Below, in pieces: positions 220 to 18,609 of a stretch of 18,609 nt of DNA. Under the pieces are notes generated by a model. That model did not search any database, was not told the origin of the DNA, and saw nothing but the letters and a program-made list of their open reading frames with translations. Position 1 is the first letter of the stretch, and every line of letters starts with the position of its first letter. A program made the translations under genes and the position numbers. Origin of the DNA: a virus; IMG/VR virus record IMGVR_UViG_3300045988_016379. The stretch is one strand, 5' to 3'.

Positions 220-507
220 ATGATTATTTTGATTGATAACACTAAGGTCGTTGAGATTACTCTCAGGGAGTGGGACCGTGATAGTTTGGGCTATGGTCCT
301 GATTGGTCTAATGATTTCTTTGAGGTTGGTGCTTTGGAGCCCGTTGATGGCTCGGATGGGGCTTATTGGGTGCAGGATGTTGATTATTGTGTTGAGTATG
401 CTTGTGATATGATTGATGGTGTTGGTGATTTTGCGGAGTATGGGCTTCAGCCGTGTCAGTGTGTTGATGTGACTGTGCTTGACCGTGATGAGTTGGTTGA
501 TTTTTGA
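220..507 (+). CDS. Hypothetical very acidic early protein (95 aa), ITR-encoded copy 1
   Basis: ORF with SD AAGGAAGGG upstream. It has 16 Asp + 7 Glu against 1 Lys + 3 Arg. An identical copy sits at 18103-18390. Its T-ending codon usage differs from the structural genes. Confidence 0.8.
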   Translation: MIILIDNTKVVEITLREWDRDSLGYGPDWSNDFFEVGALEPVDGSDGAYWVQDVDYCVEYACDMIDGVGDFAEYGLQPCQCVDVTVLDRDELVDF

Positions 508-2104: not shown

Positions 2105-3214
2105 TCACTTTCTTATTCCTGACTGTTGTAATAGGCCGCCAAGAATCATACTGAATTCCGCTTTGATTTGCGGTGTCTCGAATCGTAATCTGCCGACGCG
2201 ATAGGCGTTTAATATTTTCTGCGTCATGTCGTCCGAGCGTTTGAGCATCATGCAATCATTGTCTACCAGTCGATAATCAAACGTAAAATCACGGGTGATT
2301 TTAGGCTGTTTTTTGGTGATTATATATAGCACTTCGTCAGCGTCGCTTAATTGCTGATATACATTAAAAATACCGTATTCGGTGGTTTTCAATGTGAATG
2401 CATAACCGGCGTTATTAAAATCGCTGATGAGAGTATTGGCGTTGTCCCTGAAATCATTATTGATTGCATAATTCGCATAGTTTTCGTCGTATTCGCGTAA
2501 AAATTGGCCGAATTTTGATGTGGCGACCTTGGCGCTGAATCCACCATAATCCGCTAATTCCACCATAATGAACCCGTTGCAATACCGTTGATATTGCGTG
2601 TGATTATCCAGTTGTGGTTTGAGATTAATGCCGAACGCGCTGAAATACGGGTTGGCGAGGGTCACGGCGTTACTGCACATGATGACTCGTACGCGGTCAT
2701 TCCATCTGTCGACTGTGTTATAGAATTCCTCCAGCGCGGTCACTTCGCCGCCCAAGTATCTCATGTTGTCGGGGAATATTTCATCGAAAATGATGGTACG
2801 CACTTTGGGGTAGGCGACTGATTTCACTTGACCCGCCTGTGATAGGGCGATGAAGTACCCCATGATATGCCATGTGGGGCGCATCTTTCCGTGCTTATCG
2901 GTGGTGGCGTCCCTATCATCCATCCAATGGCATTCGGCCTGATTCCCGGAGACACGGAATTCCAGTTCCGGGTATTGCTCCGCGATGTCCGCGAACCATG
3001 TGCCCTTGTTCTTCTGTTCCTCGGCCGTCCTGCGCAGGTAGATGAACTGCCATCGTTTTTTCACCCAGTCACCGATGACGAGCTTCTTCGCACCATAGGT
3101 CTTGCCTAATCCGCGCGCGCCGATGACGAACATCCATGGCGCGTGGTATGAGAGGACACGACCATAGTCATAATAGTCGCTTTCGTCAAGAATCCTCTCC
3201 ATAACATCAATCAT
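2105..3214 (-). CDS. DNA encapsidation (packaging) ATPase, phi29 gp16-like
   Basis: Walker A FVIGARGLGKTYG and Walker B RTIIFDEIF, with colinear similarity to phi29 gp16 (LSY...FVIGARG, CSNAVT..NPYF, LRF near the C-terminus). The start is ambiguous: ATG 3214 (MIDV) or ATG 3202 (MERIL). The track's 3289 start is a GTG that overlaps the upstream gene. Confidence 0.9.
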   Translation of the reverse strand: MIDVMERILDESDYYDYGRVLSYHAPWMFVIGARGLGKTYGAKKLVIGDWVKKRWQFIYLRRTAEEQKNKGTWFADIAEQYPELEFRVSGNQAECHWMDDRDATTDKHGKMRPTWHIMGYFIALSQAGQVKSVAYPKVRTIIFDEIFPDNMRYLGGEVTALEEFYNTVDRWNDRVRVIMCSNAVTLANPYFSAFGINLKPQLDNHTQYQRYCNGFIMVELADYGGFSAKVATSKFGQFLREYDENYANYAINNDFRDNANTLISDFNNAGYAFTLKTTEYGIFNVYQQLSDADEVLYIITKKQPKITRDFTFDYRLVDNDCMMLKRSDDMTQKILNAYRVGRLRFETPQIKAEFSMILGGLLQQSGIRK

Positions 3215-3231
3215 ACCATAAGATACGGAGA

Positions 3232-3253
3232 AACCGGTGGATATCCACCGGTT
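3232..3253 (-). terminator. Perfect 22-nt palindrome/hairpin between virion lysin and ATPase genes
   Basis: AACCGGTGGATATCCACCGGTT. On the - strand it follows the TAG stop (3259-3261) and is followed by UUUCUCCGUAUCUU. It could be a terminator, an attenuator or a processing site. Confidence 0.4.
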
Positions 3254-3258
3254 CCGCC

Positions 3259-4524
3259 CTACTTGGTGATATACCGGCGTATCTCCCACCGAGTCGCCCC
3301 GCCCATCTCGCTTGACGCCGCGAACAGGTTCGGCCCGCTACCCGGACCCCCGTGGGATAATGTTTCATCCTTGCCGTCTGCGGTGAACATTTCTACATGG
3401 TCCCACGTTTGCGTGTATGCGCCCCAGTCCAGTAACAGCAGGTCGGCGGCGTGCGCCATGGCGATGGCCGCCGATATGGACGTGTCCGAACTGCCGCACA
3501 CGCGCATGCCCTTGCCTGCCATCTGCCCCGTCCATGTGCCCACATCGATTCCGAGCACGTCCTGATACGCACGCCAGCATACCGAACTGCAATCACCGTA
3601 CCCGCTCGAATCAGGGTCAAGCCGCCCCGCGCCCTGCGAATAGGCGTATTTGTTGATGCGTGACCGCAACCATTCCACGACACGCGCCGCATCCTTGTTG
3701 CTGCTGCCGGAGCTTGACCCGCCGCCTGTCTGACCGCCGCCCGGCTTGGTGCTCTCCGACGTGCGATACACCCATGTCTGCGCCGCGCCTTTGACGAAGA
3801 GGGCCGTACTGTCCCCGCTACGATAGACAAGATTATCGCCCTGCAACCGTATCCATGCGGTACTGCCGGGCTTCCCGTCAATGCCTGGTCGGTCGCCGCC
3901 CGGCGTATTCGATGGCTTGGAGGTCTGCCCGAAGTCAGGCGGTGCGCTCGTACCGTCCCACGCTTTCAGCAGGTTATATGCGGTGGTGTACCGATTGCGA
4001 TACTGTCCCAATACCCCGTCGGCCAGTATTGTGGTGTAAATCAGTTCCAGTGTGGCCGTCGCCGAGCATGACGCCAATACACGTTGCGCCTGCGCGGGAC
4101 TCTGATGGTAGGCGCACGCCCACATGATACGCTCTTTGACGTTGTTGGCAGGAAAACCGAAGTTCGTCATGGTGTTTTGGTATCCGCCCCAATCCGCCTC
4201 CCATTGCGCCTCCTGAAACGCATGATTCTGTGAGCGTTGCGCCCATGTCTTCCAAGCATTCCCCTCCGCTGTGGACAGATAGCGTGTTGTCCAATTGATG
4301 GAGTTTGACTGCACTTGCTGGGCTAATATTGGTGCCGCCGACGCGAACGCCTTCCAGCCGTCCTGGTCGGCGGTGCGCCCGCGTTCCAAGAGATTGCGGG
4401 CTCGTGTCCCATACCATTGCATCATACCCATGGTAATGGCGTCCACGTAATTGCAGGCACCCCAATCACAATTGGATTCCACCGTGCCGATAACGTACAT
4501 CGCGTAATATGCCGTATTGTCCAT
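3259..4524 (-). CDS. Virion-associated peptidoglycan hydrolase (phi29 gp13-like): N-terminal lysozyme-like domain + C-terminal NlpC/P60-type cysteine peptidase
   Basis: The N-terminus (GTVESNCDWG...GMMQWYG) resembles the phi29 gp13 lysozyme-like domain (MQSES...GLVQWT). A G/S/P-rich linker follows. The C-terminus has GYGDCSSVCWRAY...DHVEMF (Cys/His peptidase). The position matches gp13. The likely start is ATG 4524; the track start 4542 is a GTG inside a hairpin. Confidence 0.85.
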   Translation of the reverse strand: MDNTAYYAMYVIGTVESNCDWGACNYVDAITMGMMQWYGTRARNLLERGRTADQDGWKAFASAAPILAQQVQSNSINWTTRYLSTAEGNAWKTWAQRSQNHAFQEAQWEADWGGYQNTMTNFGFPANNVKERIMWACAYHQSPAQAQRVLASCSATATLELIYTTILADGVLGQYRNRYTTAYNLLKAWDGTSAPPDFGQTSKPSNTPGGDRPGIDGKPGSTAWIRLQGDNLVYRSGDSTALFVKGAAQTWVYRTSESTKPGGGQTGGGSSSGSSNKDAARVVEWLRSRINKYAYSQGAGRLDPDSSGYGDCSSVCWRAYQDVLGIDVGTWTGQMAGKGMRVCGSSDTSISAAIAMAHAADLLLLDWGAYTQTWDHVEMFTADGKDETLSHGGPGSGPNLFAASSEMGGATRWEIRRYITK

Positions 4525-11410: not shown

Positions 11411-13141
11411 TCACGCTTTCACGGTCATACTGGCTTTGCCGGACACGCCGAACAGGGTCGCGGTGATATCGGACGAGCCTGCCTTGACACCGGACACCAC
11501 ACCCGACTCGGATACCGTGGCGTTCTCCGGAGTGCCGGAAGTCCATGCGGCCTGGGCGGTCACGTCGGCGGTACGCCCGTCAATCATGGTCGCCACTGCG
11601 GACGCCTGCGCCGTCTGATTCAGTTTCACCGCCGGGGCGGTCACGGCAATCGACGCGATGATGGACGGGCTGAATCCGATGACACCATCGCCGACCACCG
11701 GCACGCTCAGGGCGGCGGATACGGTGCCGGGCACTTCCGGCGTCGCCGGATTTGTATACAGGGCGGTGGCCGTCACCGGGATGCTGGTGTTCGGTTCGTC
11801 AAGGCCGACCACCAGCACGCCGGTGGGCGAAATGTACGTATAATCGCTCTTCGGCTTGACGGTATCGCCGATGGTATATTCGACCGCGTCGGAGCGGAAT
11901 GTGGCCGCACTGTCATTGGTGATGGTCGTATCGGCGGTAATCTGCACCGCGCTTCCACGCGACACGTTGGTCGGGGTTGTCGTGCCGCCGCCGTACATGG
12001 CGAGTTTGAGTTGGAAGGTCGGCGTCTTGGCTTGCGTGCCGGTGGGCGGCACCGTTTTGGCGCTGGAACCCGCGCCCGTCCAGAACATGACGGCGGGGGC
12101 GAAGCCGGACACGCTGATGATGTGCTGGACATGCAGGTAATGGTTCACCGAATTGATGTTGACCGGGTTCGTCTGCTGTGTCATCTCATTGATGGCGGGA
12201 ATATCAATGAGGAATTTATCCGTGGTGAGAATGGCCTGTACGCCATTCATGCCGAACCTGTCCTGCGGGATGACGATGATTCGGTCGATGGTCGGTTCGG
12301 CGTCGGTACGCTGGAATACGGTCGCCAATCCCTGAACATCGAGTGCCGACTTGACTTCCGGGGAACAGAACAGTACGAGCTCATCCGGGCGGGCGAACGT
12401 CGGCATGTGACGCGCGTTGTATCGGGTGGACACGAACTTCAGCGTGTCGGCCCATGCGCGAATCTGCCGCAGCATGTCTCGGGCGTCGGTTTCCGTCGAA
12501 CCCATGTCGTTCAGATCCTTGGCCATGTGGACACGCCAGTATCCGCCAAGCTTCGCGTACTCGACGAACTGATGGCACATGGCCTCGAACAAGTCGACTT
12601 CCGCCGCGTTGTAGCAGGATGTGAGGATTTGCGAGGTGAGGGACGCCAAACCGCCTTCGGAAATGAATGCACGCTGAAGCGTCTTGTCATCCGTGGTCGC
12701 CGGATACCAGTGGGCGAAATCAAGACGGTGATACAGCGAATCCACGTCGATTTTCCACTTACGGAAGTTATCCGCGCCGAGGTACTCGGCGTTCGGGTCG
12801 TACACCTGAGCGAGCGGCATGCCCACGGCAATCTCCTGCCACGTGTCGCCATACGCCTGAGATGCACGCTGGAAAACGCCGAGCGGATTGTTCCACCGCC
12901 ACGTGTTCACATAGGTGCCGCCGATGCGGTTCACCAGAGCTGCGTAAAACTCGTTTTTCAACTGACTGCTGGACATGAGCGTGGCCATCTGGCGGTCCAT
13001 GTTCATCTGGGTCGCACTTGGCATGCGCCGCTGATATTCAGGCGACGCCTCATTGCGAATCATATTGAGAATCTGAGCATTGTTGAATTCGGTGAGCGGG
13101 CGAAGCTGCTGCTTCGGCGTCACCACTGGGGCGGTCGGCAT
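11411..13141 (-). CDS. Major capsid protein with C-terminal Ig-like (Big_2) domain(s), phi29 gp8 analog
   Basis: 576 aa with a strong SD (AAGGAGA 6 nt upstream of the ATG). It sits after the scaffold gene and before the tail knob gene, as in phi29. The C-terminal ~80 aa have a Big_2 pattern (VTAPAV...ATVSESGVVSGVKAGSSDITATLFGVSGKASMTV). Assignment of the N-terminal ~370 aa rests on position and size only. Confidence 0.85.
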   Translation of the reverse strand: MPTAPVVTPKQQLRPLTEFNNAQILNMIRNEASPEYQRRMPSATQMNMDRQMATLMSSSQLKNEFYAALVNRIGGTYVNTWRWNNPLGVFQRASQAYGDTWQEIAVGMPLAQVYDPNAEYLGADNFRKWKIDVDSLYHRLDFAHWYPATTDDKTLQRAFISEGGLASLTSQILTSCYNAAEVDLFEAMCHQFVEYAKLGGYWRVHMAKDLNDMGSTETDARDMLRQIRAWADTLKFVSTRYNARHMPTFARPDELVLFCSPEVKSALDVQGLATVFQRTDAEPTIDRIIVIPQDRFGMNGVQAILTTDKFLIDIPAINEMTQQTNPVNINSVNHYLHVQHIISVSGFAPAVMFWTGAGSSAKTVPPTGTQAKTPTFQLKLAMYGGGTTTPTNVSRGSAVQITADTTITNDSAATFRSDAVEYTIGDTVKPKSDYTYISPTGVLVVGLDEPNTSIPVTATALYTNPATPEVPGTVSAALSVPVVGDGVIGFSPSIIASIAVTAPAVKLNQTAQASAVATMIDGRTADVTAQAAWTSGTPENATVSESGVVSGVKAGSSDITATLFGVSGKASMTVKA

Positions 13142-13164: not shown

Positions 13165-13506
13165 TTAATCTTCATACAGGTCGTTGAATGTACTGTATGT
13201 GCCGTTATAGTCATCGTCGGTCATTTCAGCCGATTCCGTTGTCGCGTCATCGTCGGAGCCATCGTTGAGCACGTGGTCTGCTGCCGCGTCGCGCATCGCC
13301 TCAATGGTCTCGGACAGTTCCGCCACGGTCGCCTCCAGGGCGCTGATACGGTTGGCCATGTCGGCGTTCTTGTCATCGCCAGCGTCTTCCGGTTCGCCGT
13401 CATCCTGCGTTTCAGGCTCCGGGTTCGGCGTATTGTCGGCGTCGGTCGCGTCCTGTTCGGTGTCGGGCGTGGTGTCCGACTTGTCGTCGGTTTCGACATC
13501 GTCCAT
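13165..13506 (-). CDS. Scaffolding protein (phi29 gp7 analog), highly acidic
   Basis: 113 aa directly upstream of the capsid gene, with a D/E/T-rich disordered N-terminus and a helical segment (NRISALEATVAELSETIEAMRDAAA). ATG 13506 with SD AAGGGG 8 nt upstream is preferred over the track's GTG at 13515. Confidence 0.7.
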   Translation of the reverse strand: MDDVETDDKSDTTPDTEQDATDADNTPNPEPETQDDGEPEDAGDDKNADMANRISALEATVAELSETIEAMRDAAADHVLNDGSDDDATTESAEMTDDDYNGTYSTFNDLYED

Positions 13507-13520
13507 AATAATCACCCCTT

Positions 13521-13557
13521 AAGATAAATGGCACGGCGGCAATCACGCTGCCGTGCC
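13521..13557 (-). terminator. Intrinsic terminator-like hairpin abutting the scaffold gene RBS
   Basis: On the - strand: GGCACGGCAGC-GUGAUU-GCCGCCGUGCC (8 bp, one mismatch, then 2 bp) followed by AUUUAUCUU. The SD AAGGGG of the scaffold gene follows immediately. Confidence 0.6.
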
Positions 13558-13696
13558 GGATTGCTAGGCTGTGCGGGTTCCCTCGCCGTCGCTGGGCGTT
13601 GGCTACGCACGTCTACATCCGACCGAATCGCCTTACCGATTTGCCTGACGGTCGGGCCATCGAATCGACTTGGGACGCACATCCCGCTACCGGTCA

Positions 13697-15157
13697 TTAT
13701 AACACAAAAGCATGTCCATCGTCGTTGAAATGCTGCGACCCCGGTAGGAACTCATCGTAGGGGATGGGTGCGGCGCGATGCACGCCGCTCAACCGCATCA
13801 CCGTCTCGCCGCCCGCCTCTATGCCACAATATTTGCGATTGCCGAGGATACGCAGCTTGTCGTAATTGTGGTCGTTTTTCCACGCTCCCAGTTTCCTGCC
13901 ATCCGGTTCGATGCCAATGGGCGCATCCAATCCCTCCAATATCATGCCATCGGTGTCGGCGTAAAGCACTCGGTCGGCGTTCGCGTTCATGGCGCGTGAT
14001 AGTATCCGTCTGCCATAGGCGTTGACGTAGGCGGCGGTCGGCAGCCATGCCATACTGTTGGCCGACCCGGGCTTGTCCACGATAAAATCCACACCACCGT
14101 CCGCAGAGGGTTTCGGATGCAGCATGGGGCGGTAGAGTGAGGCCCCGAATTTTCCCGCCAGCGAGTTCAGCAGCAATTTCGCCATTTGCCTGCGTTCTCC
14201 GGTTGCGGTTTGTTTCACGCGAAACCATTTGTCCACGTATGTGTAATATAGCCCGTGTGATTTGCGGAACTTCCATCCGCCGATATGCTCCCACACATGC
14301 ACGTCATAGTTTTCCGTGAGCGTCTCCCAATCCACATCCGTGACGGGCATGGTTACGACGCCTAGCGTGCTATCCAAACGTTCGCCCTCATACCCCCATA
14401 CGGGGAGGATATTGGTTAACGTCGCCGTTCCACCCGGTTTCAACCGCGCGTCGAACGCGATGATATCAATATGCAGCGGATAATCATTATCATGATGATA
14501 TTCGCCGTCATACCACATGGAGGCCCCCACCGGCATGGGGGCGTCGCGCATGATGCTCGGGTAAAGGCTGTTCACATCCCAGCTTCGACAATTCTTGTAT
14601 TCTCCGGGCTTGCTGTACACTATCGCCCCATAGTAGGCCGGCCGCATCCGGTGATAATCCGCCTTATCCAATGGCGGAAAATGACGTTTGAATCCGGCGT
14701 AATCCCCGTCGATATAGTCGGTCATCGCCATGGACGCTATGGTAGTGCCCCTGAGATTCAGGGCCTCGCATTCCCGTGCGATGTTCCACGTGGTTTCCAA
14801 GTCATCCATGCCGCCGAACGTTTCACGTGAAACATTCAGGCCATCGTCTCGAGTAACATTGCGGACATCCAGAAAATCCACGGTGATGCCGCCCATGCGC
14901 ACGCGAAAACTGTAGAAATGGCCACGGATATTGAACGTGCCCCACACGCCGTCCTTGACTGGGTTCGATTGCAATGGCAGTCGTTTCAGCAGCTCGGCGG
15001 CTATGGGCTTGATGTCCTGCCATCCGTGGGCGCACCATACGCGCGTGTGATGTTCGAGCATAGTGAGGCGGATGACGGCGTTCACCGTCAATGGTTCCAC
15101 ACCGTCATCCGTGCATAGCATTGCGCCGTCTGTTGCCGCCATTCGACGCTCTCGCAT
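13697..15157 (-). CDS. Family B DNA polymerase, protein-primed type (phi29 gp2-like), compact, exonuclease motifs apparently degenerate
   Basis: Motif A WDVNSLYPSIM, YPLHI (start of the TPR1 region), motif B KLLLNSLAGKFG, motif C LYADTDGM, and a KxY-like NRKY. The likely start is ATG 15157 (SD AAAAGGA 7 nt upstream, just after the upstream TAA). The track start 15199 overlaps the upstream gene. Confidence 0.92.
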   Translation of the reverse strand: MRERRMAATDGAMLCTDDGVEPLTVNAVIRLTMLEHHTRVWCAHGWQDIKPIAAELLKRLPLQSNPVKDGVWGTFNIRGHFYSFRVRMGGITVDFLDVRNVTRDDGLNVSRETFGGMDDLETTWNIARECEALNLRGTTIASMAMTDYIDGDYAGFKRHFPPLDKADYHRMRPAYYGAIVYSKPGEYKNCRSWDVNSLYPSIMRDAPMPVGASMWYDGEYHHDNDYPLHIDIIAFDARLKPGGTATLTNILPVWGYEGERLDSTLGVVTMPVTDVDWETLTENYDVHVWEHIGGWKFRKSHGLYYTYVDKWFRVKQTATGERRQMAKLLLNSLAGKFGASLYRPMLHPKPSADGGVDFIVDKPGSANSMAWLPTAAYVNAYGRRILSRAMNANADRVLYADTDGMILEGLDAPIGIEPDGRKLGAWKNDHNYDKLRILGNRKYCGIEAGGETVMRLSGVHRAAPIPYDEFLPGSQHFNDDGHAFVL

Positions 15158-15171
15158 GATTCCATCCTTTT

Positions 15172-16116
15172 TTAGTGTCGTGCCGCGTTGGTCATCCATT
15201 CATCAAGTCGTGTCTCTACATCTCCTGCATCCGCTTTTGTCTCCCATTTATGCGTTTTATCATTATACCATGCGGCCTCCCGTACCACGGCGCTAAAGTT
15301 CGTGTTGTTTATCAGCCATCGTTTTTGACGGTTCAACAAAGCGTAGAATTTTTGGGAGATGCTGGAGTCGAATGCCTCTAATTGCTGTTCGACTCTATCA
15401 AAATCCGCAACCCCCTCGTTCTTTGGAATCTGTCTAGTTCCCGCATGTAGCGGAGCTCGCCCCGTAAGCCCGGCGTACTCGAGTATCTCCCGCTCAAGTT
15501 TTTTACGCCCCCCTTCTCGTATCATCATGCGCGCGTGGCTTATGCCACGCTCTGTACCAAACACGTTCGCACGGTTGCGTGTGAGTTCGTCACGCGCCGA
15601 ACCGCCGACCGTATGAGTACCCAACACGTCGAACGGTGACTCTCCCGCGCGTTCCATTTCACGTATTTCGGCCACGGTGTAGCGGGCCATGCTCAATGCC
15701 TCGAATTGTTGGTCGCGTTTGATTTTCCGCCGCGCTTCGATACGGCGGCGCTGCTGTTGCCTCAATGTTTTCCGACGTTTTGACGGGGCGGCGCTGATTT
15801 CTGCATCGGTTATCAACGGTCGCGCCGCCAGCTCCCTATCGAGTTTCGTGACATGCACGTCGGGGACAACCTGATACGGCTCGTTATCCCGTGACCTTAA
15901 AGCCTGCTGCCGTTCCCCAAACTCCTGCCCGATGCGGCGTGCGACCTGCTCGAGTTGTTGAGCGCTGAGCTTCCCCAAAAACGTTTCGGTGATTTGCTTG
16001 GGGAGGTGTCCGGTGCTATAGTCTCTGACCGCCTGCTCTCGGCGTACCTGTGCCGACCTGGTGGCGGCATTACGTTTCAGGCTGCTAGCGCGTCGATTGT
16101 TTTTACGTTTTGCCAC
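15172..16116 (-). CDS. Candidate terminal protein (phi29 gp3 analog)
   Basis: The call rests on position: it is immediately upstream of the protein-primed polymerase, as in phi29. It is Arg/Lys-rich, especially at the N-terminus (AKRKNNRRASSLKRNAATR). GTG 16116 is preferred because of the strong SD AAGGAGAG 5-7 nt upstream. The track start 16194 would translate through a terminator hairpin. I recognised no sequence similarity to phi29 TP by eye. Confidence 0.5.
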   Translation of the reverse strand: MAKRKNNRRASSLKRNAATRSAQVRREQAVRDYSTGHLPKQITETFLGKLSAQQLEQVARRIGQEFGERQQALRSRDNEPYQVVPDVHVTKLDRELAARPLITDAEISAAPSKRRKTLRQQQRRRIEARRKIKRDQQFEALSMARYTVAEIREMERAGESPFDVLGTHTVGGSARDELTRNRANVFGTERGISHARMMIREGGRKKLEREILEYAGLTGRAPLHAGTRQIPKNEGVADFDRVEQQLEAFDSSISQKFYALLNRQKRWLINNTNFSAVVREAAWYNDKTHKWETKADAGDVETRLDEWMTNAARH

Positions 16117-16132
16117 AGCCTCTCTCCTTGTG

Positions 16133-16178
16133 AGTATGAAAACACCCCTCGCAGCAAGGATGGAAGCAGCAAGGGGTG
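16133..16178 (-). terminator. Intrinsic terminator-like hairpin upstream of candidate TP gene
   Basis: On the - strand: CACCCCUUGCUGC / GCUGCGAGGGGUG (13 positions with one U-U mismatch and one G-U pair), a 10-nt loop, then UUUUCAUACU, ending about 8 nt before the SD of the TP gene. Confidence 0.55.
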
Positions 16179-16240
16179 AATTTGGCGGCAACATCCCTAT
16201 AGGGACATTACCATGCTATCATATGGTGTGGACAAATAGT

Positions 16241-16678
16241 CTATTTGCGGCCTTTTTCCGACACCAATTCGAGGTCAAAGAATTTATAGCCACGGCGACT
16301 CTTCTTTTCCACCACCTTGAGAACGACAGGCGCGGCCCACTTATCCGGCGTACCAAAAATGGCGAAGAGATTACCGAAAGCGTGCGCCAGCGTGGGAGAG
16401 GCGGCGGCAAAGTCGCCCTCTTCTGCGTGGATAACGACTCGAGTGGATGAATTGATTTCACCAGTCTCCTGATTGGCGACCTCGATGGCCTGCGCCAGCA
16501 CGTTAGTGACATGCAACGGCTCATTAAGGTGGTCATCTACCTTATCGGAGGTTTGCATGGCGTTGTACAACGCCATCTTGCCGTCCATAGTAGTGGTGTC
16601 GAAGAAATGGGACACGGCGTTAGTGCCGTTCGCGGAAAAGTTATTGCCGTTCTTTACGGTCAGTTCGTTGTCAGCCAT
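16241..16678 (-). CDS. Early protein (145 aa), possible ssDNA-binding protein by position
   Basis: Good SD (AAGGAAGG 8 nt upstream). It sits just upstream of the TP-polymerase pair, where phi29 encodes gp5/gp6. The functional call rests on position only. Confidence 0.3.
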   Translation of the reverse strand: MADNELTVKNGNNFSANGTNAVSHFFDTTTMDGKMALYNAMQTSDKVDDHLNEPLHVTNVLAQAIEVANQETGEINSSTRVVIHAEEGDFAAASPTLAHAFGNLFAIFGTPDKWAAPVVLKVVEKKSRRGYKFFDLELVSEKGRK

Positions 16679-16709: not shown

Positions 16710-17027
16710 TTATTTTTCCTCGGAGATGATATCATCTTCGACCACGTTGCCGCCAACCGGCCCCGCATAATCAATAATGGTATCATCACCAAATTCGCAA
16801 TTAGCCCAATAGATTGCCTCATCCATGCGCGTTGCCTGCTGATGATATTCAGCGGACATAGGTAGCATGTCCTTGTTAATCTTACGGGCTTTCTTCATAG
16901 CCATGTCAGCCGTGCGGCACGCGCCATCCACGACCACCTCGGTGTCAACAAGTTCTCCGTTTTCGCTGCGCGTAACGCCACGCACTATACTATAATGCTT
17001 GGCTCGCTTAATGTATGCCATAATCAT
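16710..17027 (-). CDS. Hypothetical early protein (105 aa)
   Basis: ORF co-oriented with and tightly packed in the early block. AAGGCGG lies upstream. No recognisable motif. Confidence 0.6.
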   Translation of the reverse strand: MIMAYIKRAKHYSIVRGVTRSENGELVDTEVVVDGACRTADMAMKKARKINKDMLPMSAEYHQQATRMDEAIYWANCEFGDDTIIDYAGPVGGNVVEDDIISEEK

Positions 17028-17044
17028 ACCGCCTTATCTTAATG

Positions 17045-17548
17045 TTACCGTTGCTGCGACATTCTCGCAATGTCTTCATCAGTATACCGTACGTCGGTCA
17101 GATTGTCAAAACAAAGAGACGCGGCTTTGATGACAGTCTGAGCGAACTCATCACCCTCCCACGTCTTGCACATCTCATAGCAAGTCGCACCCTTGACATG
17201 ACAGACCGCACACCACGCCACCATCGCCGGACAGTAAATAAGCATGGACAGCATTTCGATGTCCTGCGTTCGTGATAATGCAGCGTACTTTGATGAGCGG
17301 GGCGTGATGCTTAGACAAATGTTCGCCGCGTGTTCGATACTGTCGGCAAACGCCACCTGGCCGCCTTGAGGTTTATAAAAATCCTTGAGTAGTGCTATAC
17401 TACGGCACAATGTCTCCCAATCTCCACCTCCTTTATTATATTCACGCAAATGCAGGTTACGCCGACGGCCCCGAATGACACGACGCACACGGTCATCGTC
17501 CAAGATACCGTCATCAAACCAATTCGTACGATTATCATTACCCTTCAT
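17045..17548 (-). CDS. Hypothetical early protein (167 aa), Cys-rich C-terminal half
   Basis: ATG 17548 is preferred (SD GAAAGGA 9 nt upstream). It contains CPAMVAWCAVCHVKGATCYEMC, a possible metal-binding cluster. Function unknown. Confidence 0.6.
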   Translation of the reverse strand: MKGNDNRTNWFDDGILDDDRVRRVIRGRRRNLHLREYNKGGGDWETLCRSIALLKDFYKPQGGQVAFADSIEHAANICLSITPRSSKYAALSRTQDIEMLSMLIYCPAMVAWCAVCHVKGATCYEMCKTWEGDEFAQTVIKAASLCFDNLTDVRYTDEDIARMSQQR

Positions 17549-17589
17549 TTTTCGACATCCTTTCACCAAACACTTTACACCACATATCA

Positions 17590-17841
17590 CTAACACCTAT
17601 CAATCAACGGAGTATCAGCCAACGCCATCGCGTCAACCAGCATATGAGCCACCTGCGCATAATCGCACGCATCAAACACCATAGTCGACCAATCCAAATG
17701 ACGACTGCCACGAGAATAAAATCGCACCGATACCGCATAACGCAACTCATACACCCTCCGGTGAGGACAATACACCAACCGCACATCACCATCCTTAAAC
17801 GAAGACGGAAAAACAGCAACAACCTTATCATTCACCATCAT
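17590..17841 (-). CDS. Hypothetical early protein (83 aa)
   Basis: ATGATG at 17841/17838 is preceded by SD GAGAGGA 6 nt upstream and overlaps the end of the upstream gene by 14 nt. The extra N-terminal residues in the track ORF are Cys/Arg/Leu-rich and unlikely to be real. Confidence 0.55.
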   Translation of the reverse strand: MMVNDKVVAVFPSSFKDGDVRLVYCPHRRVYELRYAVSVRFYSRGSRHLDWSTMVFDACDYAQVAHMLVDAMALADTPLIDRC

Positions 17842-18103
17842 CAAACATCCTCTCAAACGGCAAACGCACCTCAACAACACCATTCAAAACCCCGTTTGAA
17901 TCAAACGAAGAGTGGGCAAAACCAACATACACATCAAGACCGGAAAACGCACGACGGACAACGTCAAGCACACCATCCAACGCCTCCTTAAACGTACCAG
18001 CCGGATACGGGCCCATTACCTCCACATGCTCAGGCGTGAGCTCAAATACCGTAAAATCATCAGGCGTAACAGTAAAACACCACACGTCAAACCCCTTTCC
18101 CAT
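17828..18103 (-). CDS. Hypothetical acidic early protein (91 aa); start codon lies inside ITR-R
   Basis: ATG at 18103 overlaps the TGA of the ITR gene (TGATG). The first ~3.3 codons (ATGGGAAAGG) are ITR sequence. Composition is acidic. Confidence 0.65.
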   Translation of the reverse strand: MGKGFDVWCFTVTPDDFTVFELTPEHVEVMGPYPAGTFKEALDGVLDVVRRAFSGLDVYVGFAHSSFDSNGVLNGVVEVRLPFERMFDDGE

Positions 18104-18390
18104 CAAAAATCAACCAACTCATCACGGTCAAGCACAGTCACATCAACACACTGACACGGCTGAAGCCCATACTCCGCAAAATCACCAACACCATCAATCA
18201 TATCACAAGCATACTCAACACAATAATCAACATCCTGCACCCAATAAGCCCCATCCGAGCCATCAACGGGCTCCAAAGCACCAACCTCAAAGAAATCATT
18301 AGACCAATCAGGACCATAGCCCAAACTATCACGGTCCCACTCCCTGAGAGTAATCTCAACGACCTTAGTGTTATCAATCAAAATAATCAT
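18103..18390 (-). CDS. Hypothetical very acidic early protein (95 aa), ITR-encoded copy 2
   Basis: The translation is identical to 220-507. It lies wholly inside ITR-R with the same promoter and SD. Confidence 0.8.
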   Translation of the reverse strand: MIILIDNTKVVEITLREWDRDSLGYGPDWSNDFFEVGALEPVDGSDGAYWVQDVDYCVEYACDMIDGVGDFAEYGLQPCQCVDVTVLDRDELVDF

Positions 18391-18425
18391 TTTTTTATTT
18401 TCCCTTCCTTGAAGTTGATACTTAT

Positions 18426-18454
18426 ATCATACCACACACACCACCAAACAACAA
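18426..18454 (-). promoter_or_regulatory. Candidate early promoter inside ITR-R (mirror of 156-184)
   Basis: This is the reverse-complement copy of TTGTTG-17 nt-TGgTATGAT. It points inward into the long - strand gene array. Confidence 0.55.
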
Positions 18455-18609
18455 GCCCAAAACACCCTCAAAAAAAAAACGGCAAAACAAAGAAAAAAAA
18501 TAAACACACAGGAGACGGAAACAAAAACACAGGAAGCAACATGAATACAAAACACAGAACAGAGCGGTTGTGGAAAAAGGCTAGCTGCTGGGGCCCCTCC
18601 CCTCCTTTT

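Follow-up and report, generated by a model that had tools for sequence, protein, structure and literature searches.

A compact phi29-type phage DNA polymerase with a degenerate proofreading site and no motif B tyrosine

The 18,609 bp stretch of viral DNA analysed here (IMG/VR record IMGVR_UViG_3300045988_016379; 'the window' refers to the whole of it) is a complete linear phage genome, and the subject of this analysis is the DNA polymerase gene found on its minus strand at positions 13697–15157. The gene product is a replicative family B enzyme of a phi29-like podophage, predicted from its sequence relationships to be primed by a terminal protein (TP) and to displace strands. There is good evidence that the 3'-5' proofreading site of this polymerase has decayed and that the tyrosine of polymerase motif B has been lost. 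In the reading we favour, to which we assign a probability of roughly 70 %, the proofreading domain has decayed catalytically in a replicase whose core is intact, the domain would have been kept as a scaffold, and the enzyme would copy DNA with low fidelity.

On this proposal the core is intact, with its catalytic motifs A and C, both TPR regions (TPR1 and TPR2) and the thumb, and the N-terminal domain is a slimmed former 3'-5' proofreading domain that is without the ExoI Glu, the ExoIII Tyr, the Kx2hxA Lys and the (S/T)Lx2h element that binds single-stranded DNA. Such a domain most likely no longer proofreads, and may be retained as part of the downstream-template tunnel that serves strand displacement and as part of the interface with the TP and between domains. 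That proofreading has been lost or severely reduced is the best reading of the sequence.

The polymerase gene and its core

Because homologues are almost always 486 aa long and an AAGGA sequence resembling a Shine-Dalgarno site lies 8 nt ahead of the ATG at 15157, translation is likely to begin there and to give a protein of 486 aa. The upstream in-frame ATG at 15199, which opens the longest open reading frame (ORF) on this strand (13697–15199, 500 aa from the first ATG), is, for the same reasons, an unlikely start. A preliminary description of the window had given the coordinates that we retain, and was correct in calling the protein compact, as it is 86–89 aa shorter than the phi29 polymerase (572/575 aa). 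The features of the gene referred to below are as follows.

13697–15157, minus strand: DNA polymerase (protein-primed, phi29-type), from the ORF list, PF03175, phmmer against phi29, Foldseek, homologue length and the ribosome-binding site
14753–15157, minus strand: N-terminal exonuclease-like domain, aa 1–135, with the fold of the phi29 exonuclease domain and approximately 50 aa shorter
15122–15136, minus strand: ExoI remnant, A8-T-D10-G-A12, Asp kept, Glu replaced by Ala (MAFFT; global subclade hhalign; D10 follows strand E4–9)
15011–15031, minus strand: ExoII remnant, A-H44-G-W-Q-D48-I, opposite HNLKFDG of phi29 (N62 replaced by H, D66 equivalent to D48)
14849–14869, minus strand: clade-specific motif D97-V-R-N100-V-T-R103, replacing the D121-S122-L123-K-K-L-P loop of phi29, which carries (S/T)Lx2h
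14783–14818, minus strand: ExoIII remnant, F-G115-G-M-D-D119-L-E-T-T-W-N, with Gly at the position of Tyr165 (hhalign, MAFFT)
14555–14578, minus strand: motif A, DVNSLYPS, intact (catalytic D194, steric-gate Y199)
14144–14179, minus strand: motif B, KLLLNSLAGKFG, with Ala334 in place of Tyr (codon 334 at 14156–14158)
13946–13963, minus strand: motif C, YADTDG, intact (catalytic D401 and D403)

Two sets of relatives inform what follows. A representatives search covering 1.84 billion sequences gave 2,344 relatives, among which a short type of 454–496 aa makes up about 17 clusters when grouped at 50 % identity. On a rough neighbour-joining (NJ) tree, these short polymerases form a single group, here called the short clade, at the base of which two 526-aa proteins branch off. 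The second set is made up of 77 close relatives from IMG/VR contigs (L005–L084) that share 85–97 % protein identity, most of which come from IMG dataset 3300045988.

The assignment to the phi29 type rests on several concordant observations. The protein scores 116 bits with PF03175 (DNA_pol_B_2), well above the cut-off, which is 25.8, and matches phrog_1907 with an E value of 3.6e-52, and residues 155–443 align almost without gaps to residues 206–500 of the phi29 enzyme (phmmer, E 1e-38), a region that takes in motifs A to C, TPR1 and TPR2. The presence of TPR1 and TPR2, as put forward in the preliminary description, is thereby borne out, and the N-terminal stretch of approximately 154 aa is left unaligned at the sequence level. 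A full-length AlphaFold2 model built from 41 sequences has a pLDDT of 90.6 (86–95 in the blocks of the N-terminal domain) and a pTM of 0.88, and in Foldseek it matches the phi29 polymerase (1xhx/2pyj) over its whole length (E 1e-38, TMq 0.82–0.85). As in phi29 gp2 (PDB 1XHX, 2PYJ and 2PY5), the order is exonuclease-fold domain, palm, TPR1, fingers, TPR2 and thumb. Together with the profile match, motifs A and C and both TPR regions, the gene lies in a linear genome with inverted terminal repeats (ITRs) and a TP gene that is putative and identified by position. The motif A and motif C residues D194, Y199, D401 and D403 are invariant in the 77 close relatives, and the KxY motif of phi29 is also conserved.

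Though the polymerase motifs had been described as intact, this holds for motifs A and C and not for motif B, where an exception had been overlooked. In KLLLNSLAGKFG, K327, N331 and G335 are present and the tyrosine that corresponds to Y390 of phi29 and Y567 of RB69 is replaced by Ala334, so that the sequence departs from the Kx3NSxYG pattern. The replacement is not peculiar to this phage, as position 334 is Val in 74 and Ala in three of the 77 close relatives and Val, Ile, Thr or Ala in 111/113 short-clade proteins. The motif B tyrosine is described as invariant in family B, and its replacement in phi29 (Y390S) is reported to diminish insertion fidelity and to abolish discrimination at 8-oxoguanine (PMC1976434); Y390 is part of the pocket that holds the nascent base pair (PMC4974454).

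The N-terminal domain

Though it escapes pairwise alignment, the N-terminal domain can be related to the exonuclease domain of phi29 by profile and by structure. An alignment of 26 short-clade sequences was matched by hhalign to one of 113 canonical relatives with the D-E-D-Y-D set at 99.1 % probability (E 6e-18). An AlphaFold2 model of residues 1–150 alone (pLDDT 90.7) retrieved the phi29 polymerase as its sole match in a Foldseek search of the PDB, in its N-terminal region (E 6e-4, TMq 0.62–0.67, 8–10 % identity), and the order of secondary structure elements, b1-b2-b3-aA-b4-aB, is that of a DnaQ-like exonuclease fold. As judged from profile alignment and model, the domain is a shrunken, strongly diverged descendant of the phi29 exonuclease domain. 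It was shortened by internal deletions, which include the beta2-beta3 hairpin and the equivalent of phi29 residues 138–164.

Residues were mapped to phi29 using profile-profile hhalign (clade and subclade runs), MAFFT and the two AlphaFold2 models. A hidden Markov model (HMM) of canonical exonuclease domains scores the short-clade N-termini weakly (7–31 bits) and local hmmalign leaves the domain unaligned; single-sequence HMM mapping was thus not used for residues. The catalytic set in phi29 consists of D12, E14, D66, D169, Y165 and K143 (PMC4974454). Three of these are kept in the window polymerase, D12 as D10, D66 as D48 and D169 as D119, and three are lost, E14 being replaced by A12 and Y165 by G115, with K143 falling in the deleted segment 138–164.

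In ExoI, MAFFT and the global subclade hhalign run place A-T-D10-G-A12 on C-D12-F-E14 of phi29, and D10 ends the first strand in the model; the motif is D10-G-A12 in place of DxE. Position 12 is Ala in 72, Val in four and Thr in one of the 77 close relatives. In ExoII, the clade and subclade hhalign runs and MAFFT align VWCAHGWQD48I to LYFHNLKFD66G, and D48 opens helix 46–59 in the model. Measured against the pattern Nx2-3(F/Y)D, H44-G-W-Q-D48 has the Asp, with the Asn (N62 in phi29, H44 here) and the aromatic residue replaced, and even this Asp is found in just 8/26 clade members. The ExoIII register runs without gaps from the invariant T139 (phi29 T189) back to D119, in agreement with a model helix at 119–132; D119 is present and the tyrosine of Yx3D is Gly115. 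Phi29 residues 138–164, deleted just upstream of this remnant, carry Lys143, which is present in 119/125 sequences of the canonical-length alignment including phi29, and S122-L123 of (S/T)Lx2h correspond to V98-R99. Neither the Kx2hxA lysine nor (S/T)Lx2h is therefore left, whereas D121 and T189 of phi29 are kept as D97 and T139.

The degeneracy of the exonuclease domain noted in the preliminary description thus stands, as the Glu, Tyr, Lys and (S/T)Lx2h elements are gone, but the manual alignment on which it was based had all three Exo motifs out of register when compared with hhalign, MAFFT and the secondary structure of the model. RVW (39–41), which had been taken for ExoI, comes before ExoII; FNIRGH (75–80), taken for ExoII, lies in the beta strand after it; and the ExoIII helix was placed six residues off. 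DLETTW, set aside as a misplaced ExoI-like string, opens the ExoIII helix. Hence, the claim that all four exonuclease carboxylates are lost has to be revised, since three of the four survive, and the gap between ExoII and ExoIII amounts to approximately 32 aa rather than 55. Acidic residues at the metal-ligand positions of a proper alignment had been named as the finding that would overturn the claim; three aspartates are indeed there, and the position of the ExoI Glu is Ala12.

Conservation, selection and competing explanations

When the whole short clade is considered, little of the catalytic constellation persists. Among 26 clade members, the positions of D12, E14, D66 and D169 are occupied by D in 12, E in one, D in eight and D/E in eight, respectively, and the only residues of the domain that are invariant are N100 and T139, with R103 85 % conserved. 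N100 and R103 belong to a new D-x-x-N-x-x-R motif standing where phi29 has its D121-K125 loop. Canonical-length relatives, for comparison, keep the D-E-D-Y-D set in 113/124 cases. At 35–45 % identity of the polymerase domain, the N-terminal domains share 18–20 % identity in the short clade, compared to 37–39 % for canonical exonuclease domains, and the short-clade domain diverges about twice as fast.

Over shorter distances the domain is nonetheless under strong purifying selection. The ratio of non-synonymous to synonymous substitution (dN/dS) in the 77 close relatives is 0.088 in the N-terminal domain and 0.075 in the rest of the protein, and D10, H44, D48, D97, N100, R103 and D119 are invariant. 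Synonymous diversity in the gene is very high in this set (mean dS approximately 0.75), which is consistent with, though not evidence for, fast evolution. The low dN/dS, taken with the long-term loss of catalytic positions, shows that the domain is clearly still needed and that what long-term conservation preserves is something other than the catalytic constellation.

What is known of phi29 provides a plausible reason for keeping the fold, together with D97 and T139 and possibly the three aspartates. There, the exonuclease domain and TPR2 together form the downstream-template tunnel, mutation of the metal ligands impairs strand displacement, and the D121-K125 loop and T189 make contacts between domains and with DNA (PMC6351526). 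Cultured relatives in which the motifs are even more decayed (BD811P1-3 and BadAztec/BadAargau) are viable phages, and no second exonuclease, DnaQ-like or otherwise, and no helicase was detected by PHROGs or Pfam in any ORF of the genome. As exonuclease decay and the missing motif B tyrosine both point to lower fidelity, the replicase is predicted to be markedly less accurate than the phi29 polymerase, and it is probably unusually error-prone.

Three observations weigh against this reading. All 77 close relatives have D10, D48 and D119, and residual or altered metal binding is possible; D10 and D48 persist down to approximately 47 % identity; and the ExoI register is of low alignment confidence, since one hhalign run, which gives no confidence values, puts strand 1 on strand 2 of phi29. 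That alternative run places no ExoI at all, and the ExoI Glu is absent in either register.

The first two of these observations are also the basis of the strongest alternative, namely that the domain is a working 3'-5' exonuclease, maybe weaker or altered, which uses D10, D48 and D119 with a substitute residue such as E121 or H44. We consider this unlikely, though it is the alternative that has most to recommend it. Besides the three aspartates, G11 and H44 are invariant and E121 is present in 75/77 close relatives despite the high dS; the nearest subclade keeps D10 and D48 in each of its seven members, an acidic residue stands at the position of E121 in 54 % of the clade, and dN/dS in the domain is as low as in the polymerase domain. 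However, three invariant sites are weak evidence in a close set where 44 % of all sites do not vary, and the strand displacement role of the phi29 metal-ligand aspartates (PMC6351526) could in itself explain their retention. No member of the subclade has an acidic residue at position 12, equivalents of Tyr165 and Lys143 are missing, and the residues in question are not constant further out, as P0121 (46 % identity) has Thr at 48 and Val at 119, P0094 has Pro at 119, and the BD811P and BadAztec types lack them altogether.

A second alternative, which would leave overall fidelity normal despite a dead domain, is that a host exonuclease or an unrecognised phage protein supplies proofreading in trans. 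Trans-acting proofreading is found elsewhere, as in the epsilon subunit of Pol III, and about ten small ORFs of the genome are without a family match. We regard this as highly improbable, given the lack of a DnaQ-like, other exonuclease or helicase domain in the PHROGs and Pfam results noted above, the sufficiency of polymerase, TP, single-stranded DNA-binding protein (SSB) and DBP for phi29-type replication (PMC4974454), and the co-occurring loss of the base-selection tyrosine, which argues for relaxed rather than outsourced fidelity. An artefact, be it faulty assembly, a pseudogene, or a gene that is truncated or mis-started, is effectively ruled out despite the alternative ATG at 15199 and some mis-called starts among database relatives, since the same 486-aa gene is found on >80 independent contigs, purifying selection is strong along its whole length, the AlphaFold2 model is confident and the shortening is due to internal deletions, not truncation.

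Decay of a proofreading domain has precedents in other settings. The eukaryotic Pol alpha and Pol zeta, also family B enzymes, keep the exonuclease fold structurally after loss of their catalytic carboxylates. They differ from the window polymerase in being RNA/DNA-primed cellular enzymes of unrelated lineages that work with accessory factors and keep the motif B tyrosine. In Pol zeta, the exonuclease domain is inactivated (PMC7544198). Among protein-primed family B polymerases (pPolBs), the exonuclease domain is mostly or wholly lost in mavirus-like virophages and in the pPolB-S1H of polinton-like viruses, for which lower fidelity was suggested by the authors (PMC11161782). Those viruses are eukaryotic, and their polymerases have largely deleted the domain and gained a helicase, whereas in the window phage the fold is kept, no helicase was detected and the polymerase presumably carries out its own strand displacement. 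The closest experimental parallels are engineered phi29 enzymes, of which the exonuclease-minus D12A/D66A mutant polymerises with impaired strand displacement (PMC6351526) and Y390S shows the reduced insertion fidelity and loss of 8-oxoguanine discrimination described above (PMC1976434). These are laboratory point changes in a canonical enzyme, unlike the window polymerase, whose deletions and new conserved motifs belong to a long history of co-evolution in which the defects may have been compensated.

The phage, related polymerases and wider meaning

The gene content, annotated using PHROGs and Pfam, is that of a phi29-like podophage, with endolysin, holin, packaging ATPase, tail, collar, connector, major head protein, SSB and polymerase. 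The features relevant to replication are as follows.

1–516, no strand: left ITR, pairing with 18094–18609 (516 nt, 100 % complementary)
18094–18609, no strand: right ITR, pairing with 1–516
15172–16194, minus strand: putative TP gene, 340 aa, so named for its position directly upstream of the polymerase gene, as in phi29
16241–16678, minus strand: phi29-type SSB (PF17427, E 3.5e-15; phrog_6243)

As in phi29, a TP gene (here putative) is upstream of the polymerase gene, the SSB is of the phi29 type and the DNA is linear with ITRs. The putative TP found no family match in PHROGs or Pfam and is 32 % identical to BadAargau2 gp17, which holds the same position. Both genome termini begin with AAAA, and the start of each reads AAAAGGAGG, as would fit initiation by sliding back. 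The perfect 516-bp ITRs are far longer than the 6 bp of phi29, and each includes an identical 95-aa ORF with no assigned function (220–507, plus strand; 18103–18390, minus strand). GC skew is strong and opposite at the two ends, +0.39 at the left (1–1500) and -0.46 at the right (17000–18609), and reaches past the ITRs.

Elsewhere in the genome, no Rfam match was obtained at E <= 1 on either strand of the whole window, so that there is no recognisable phi29-type packaging RNA despite a phi29-like packaging ATPase. A 31-nt imperfect palindrome (74 % complementary) lies at 3213–3272, where the packaging ATPase gene meets the upstream 427-aa gene. The major head protein (11411–13141, minus strand) has a C-terminal immunoglobulin-like domain, indicated by PHROG matches at residues 492–574. 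Two ORFs without family matches separate its gene from that of the polymerase, one (13165–13515, minus strand) encoding 116 aa that are very acidic and rich in D/E and T, which by position may be a scaffolding protein, and the other (13512–13697, minus strand) encoding 61 aa.

No GenBank phage has near-identical DNA, and no relatives were found in GTDB representative genomes. The nearest cultured phages by polymerase similarity are the Bifidobacterium podophages Badaztecvirus (BadAztec1 and BadAargau2), BD811P1-3 and BP1, whose polymerases belong to the same short clade at 33–37 % identity, and a database protein that is 87 % identical carries a label assigning it to a metagenome-assembled genome of Bifidobacterium breve. 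On both these grounds, the host of this small gut phage is probably a Bifidobacterium. The Bifidobacterium podophages share with the window phage their genome size and gene order and, in the polymerase, the architecture of the N-terminal domain, the Dx2Nx2R motif and, in place of the motif B tyrosine, Val/Ile. They differ in that the Exo positions are still more decayed, the BD811P type having no Asp at ExoII or ExoIII. The annotations of these polymerases say no more than 'DNA polymerase' or 'hypothetical protein', and no comment on their Exo motifs was found in the open-access literature.

In two cultured phages, the annotated polymerase start appears to be too far downstream. At 4231–4258 of BadAargau2 (L001, NC_048859) an upstream GTG gives MIVYVGDTDMTCDG, and in BD811P2 (L004, NC_073478) in-frame VTVLDGRVGLWCVDETIRF is found upstream of 2456; in both, the in-frame upstream sequence encodes the first strands of the N-terminal domain.

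Degenerate Exo motifs are also found among phi29-like polymerases outside the short clade (P0143, P0153, P0158, P0160, P0168, P0204, P0228, P0231, P0189, P0226, P0236, P0259, P0265 and P0267), though not in every actinobacterial phi29-like phage, the motifs of Curtobacterium phage Prophecy being canonical. The Exo-degenerate polymerases form 15 separate groups on the NJ tree, three or four of which consist of N-terminally truncated or fragmentary proteins. This leaves about eleven real lineages, eight of them also without the motif B tyrosine, as counted on a rough NJ tree with no formal test; the tyrosine is missing in 9/103 tips that have intact ExoII and ExoIII motifs. Among 139 representatives, those with an intact DEDD set have Tyr/Phe at the motif B position in 87 cases and another residue in nine, and those without have another residue in 27 and Tyr/Phe in 16, an association that was tested with phylogeny ignored. 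The deletion that precedes the ExoIII helix in the short clade is common to many of the degenerate lineages.

We found no description of a natural exonuclease-degenerate pPolB from a phage in the open-access literature, where a search on exonuclease loss turned up only eukaryotic precedents and an inactivated exonuclease in divergent phage PolA, and a 2024 review that covers Badaztecvirus makes no mention of exonuclease decay in phi29-like phages. The textbook case of a self-sufficient, highly accurate replicase is the phi29-type polymerase, which is also a workhorse of DNA amplification and sequencing. A widespread natural clade in which the proofreading site has decayed and the 'invariant' tyrosine is gone, with the domain still under selection, would be surprising to specialists.

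Put at its broadest, the proposal would be that an abundant phi29-like lineage of gut Bifidobacterium phages, and several other lineages independently, gave up both proofreading and the base-selection tyrosine, that their error rates lie far above what is expected of DNA-based microbes, and that the former exonuclease domain has become purely structural, serving strand displacement and TP binding. In this full form the proposal is tentative, and we think it may well overreach. A high error rate could be an adaptive mutator strategy, or selection could have been relaxed because genomes are small or hosts anaerobic. With such polymerases, what the exonuclease domain does structurally, in strand displacement and TP binding, could be told apart from catalysis, and they are a predicted source of compact, natural exonuclease-minus enzymes that displace strands. 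As cultured relatives exist (BD811P1-3, BP1 and BadAztec), they would also make it testable how high the mutation rate of a small double-stranded DNA phage can go.

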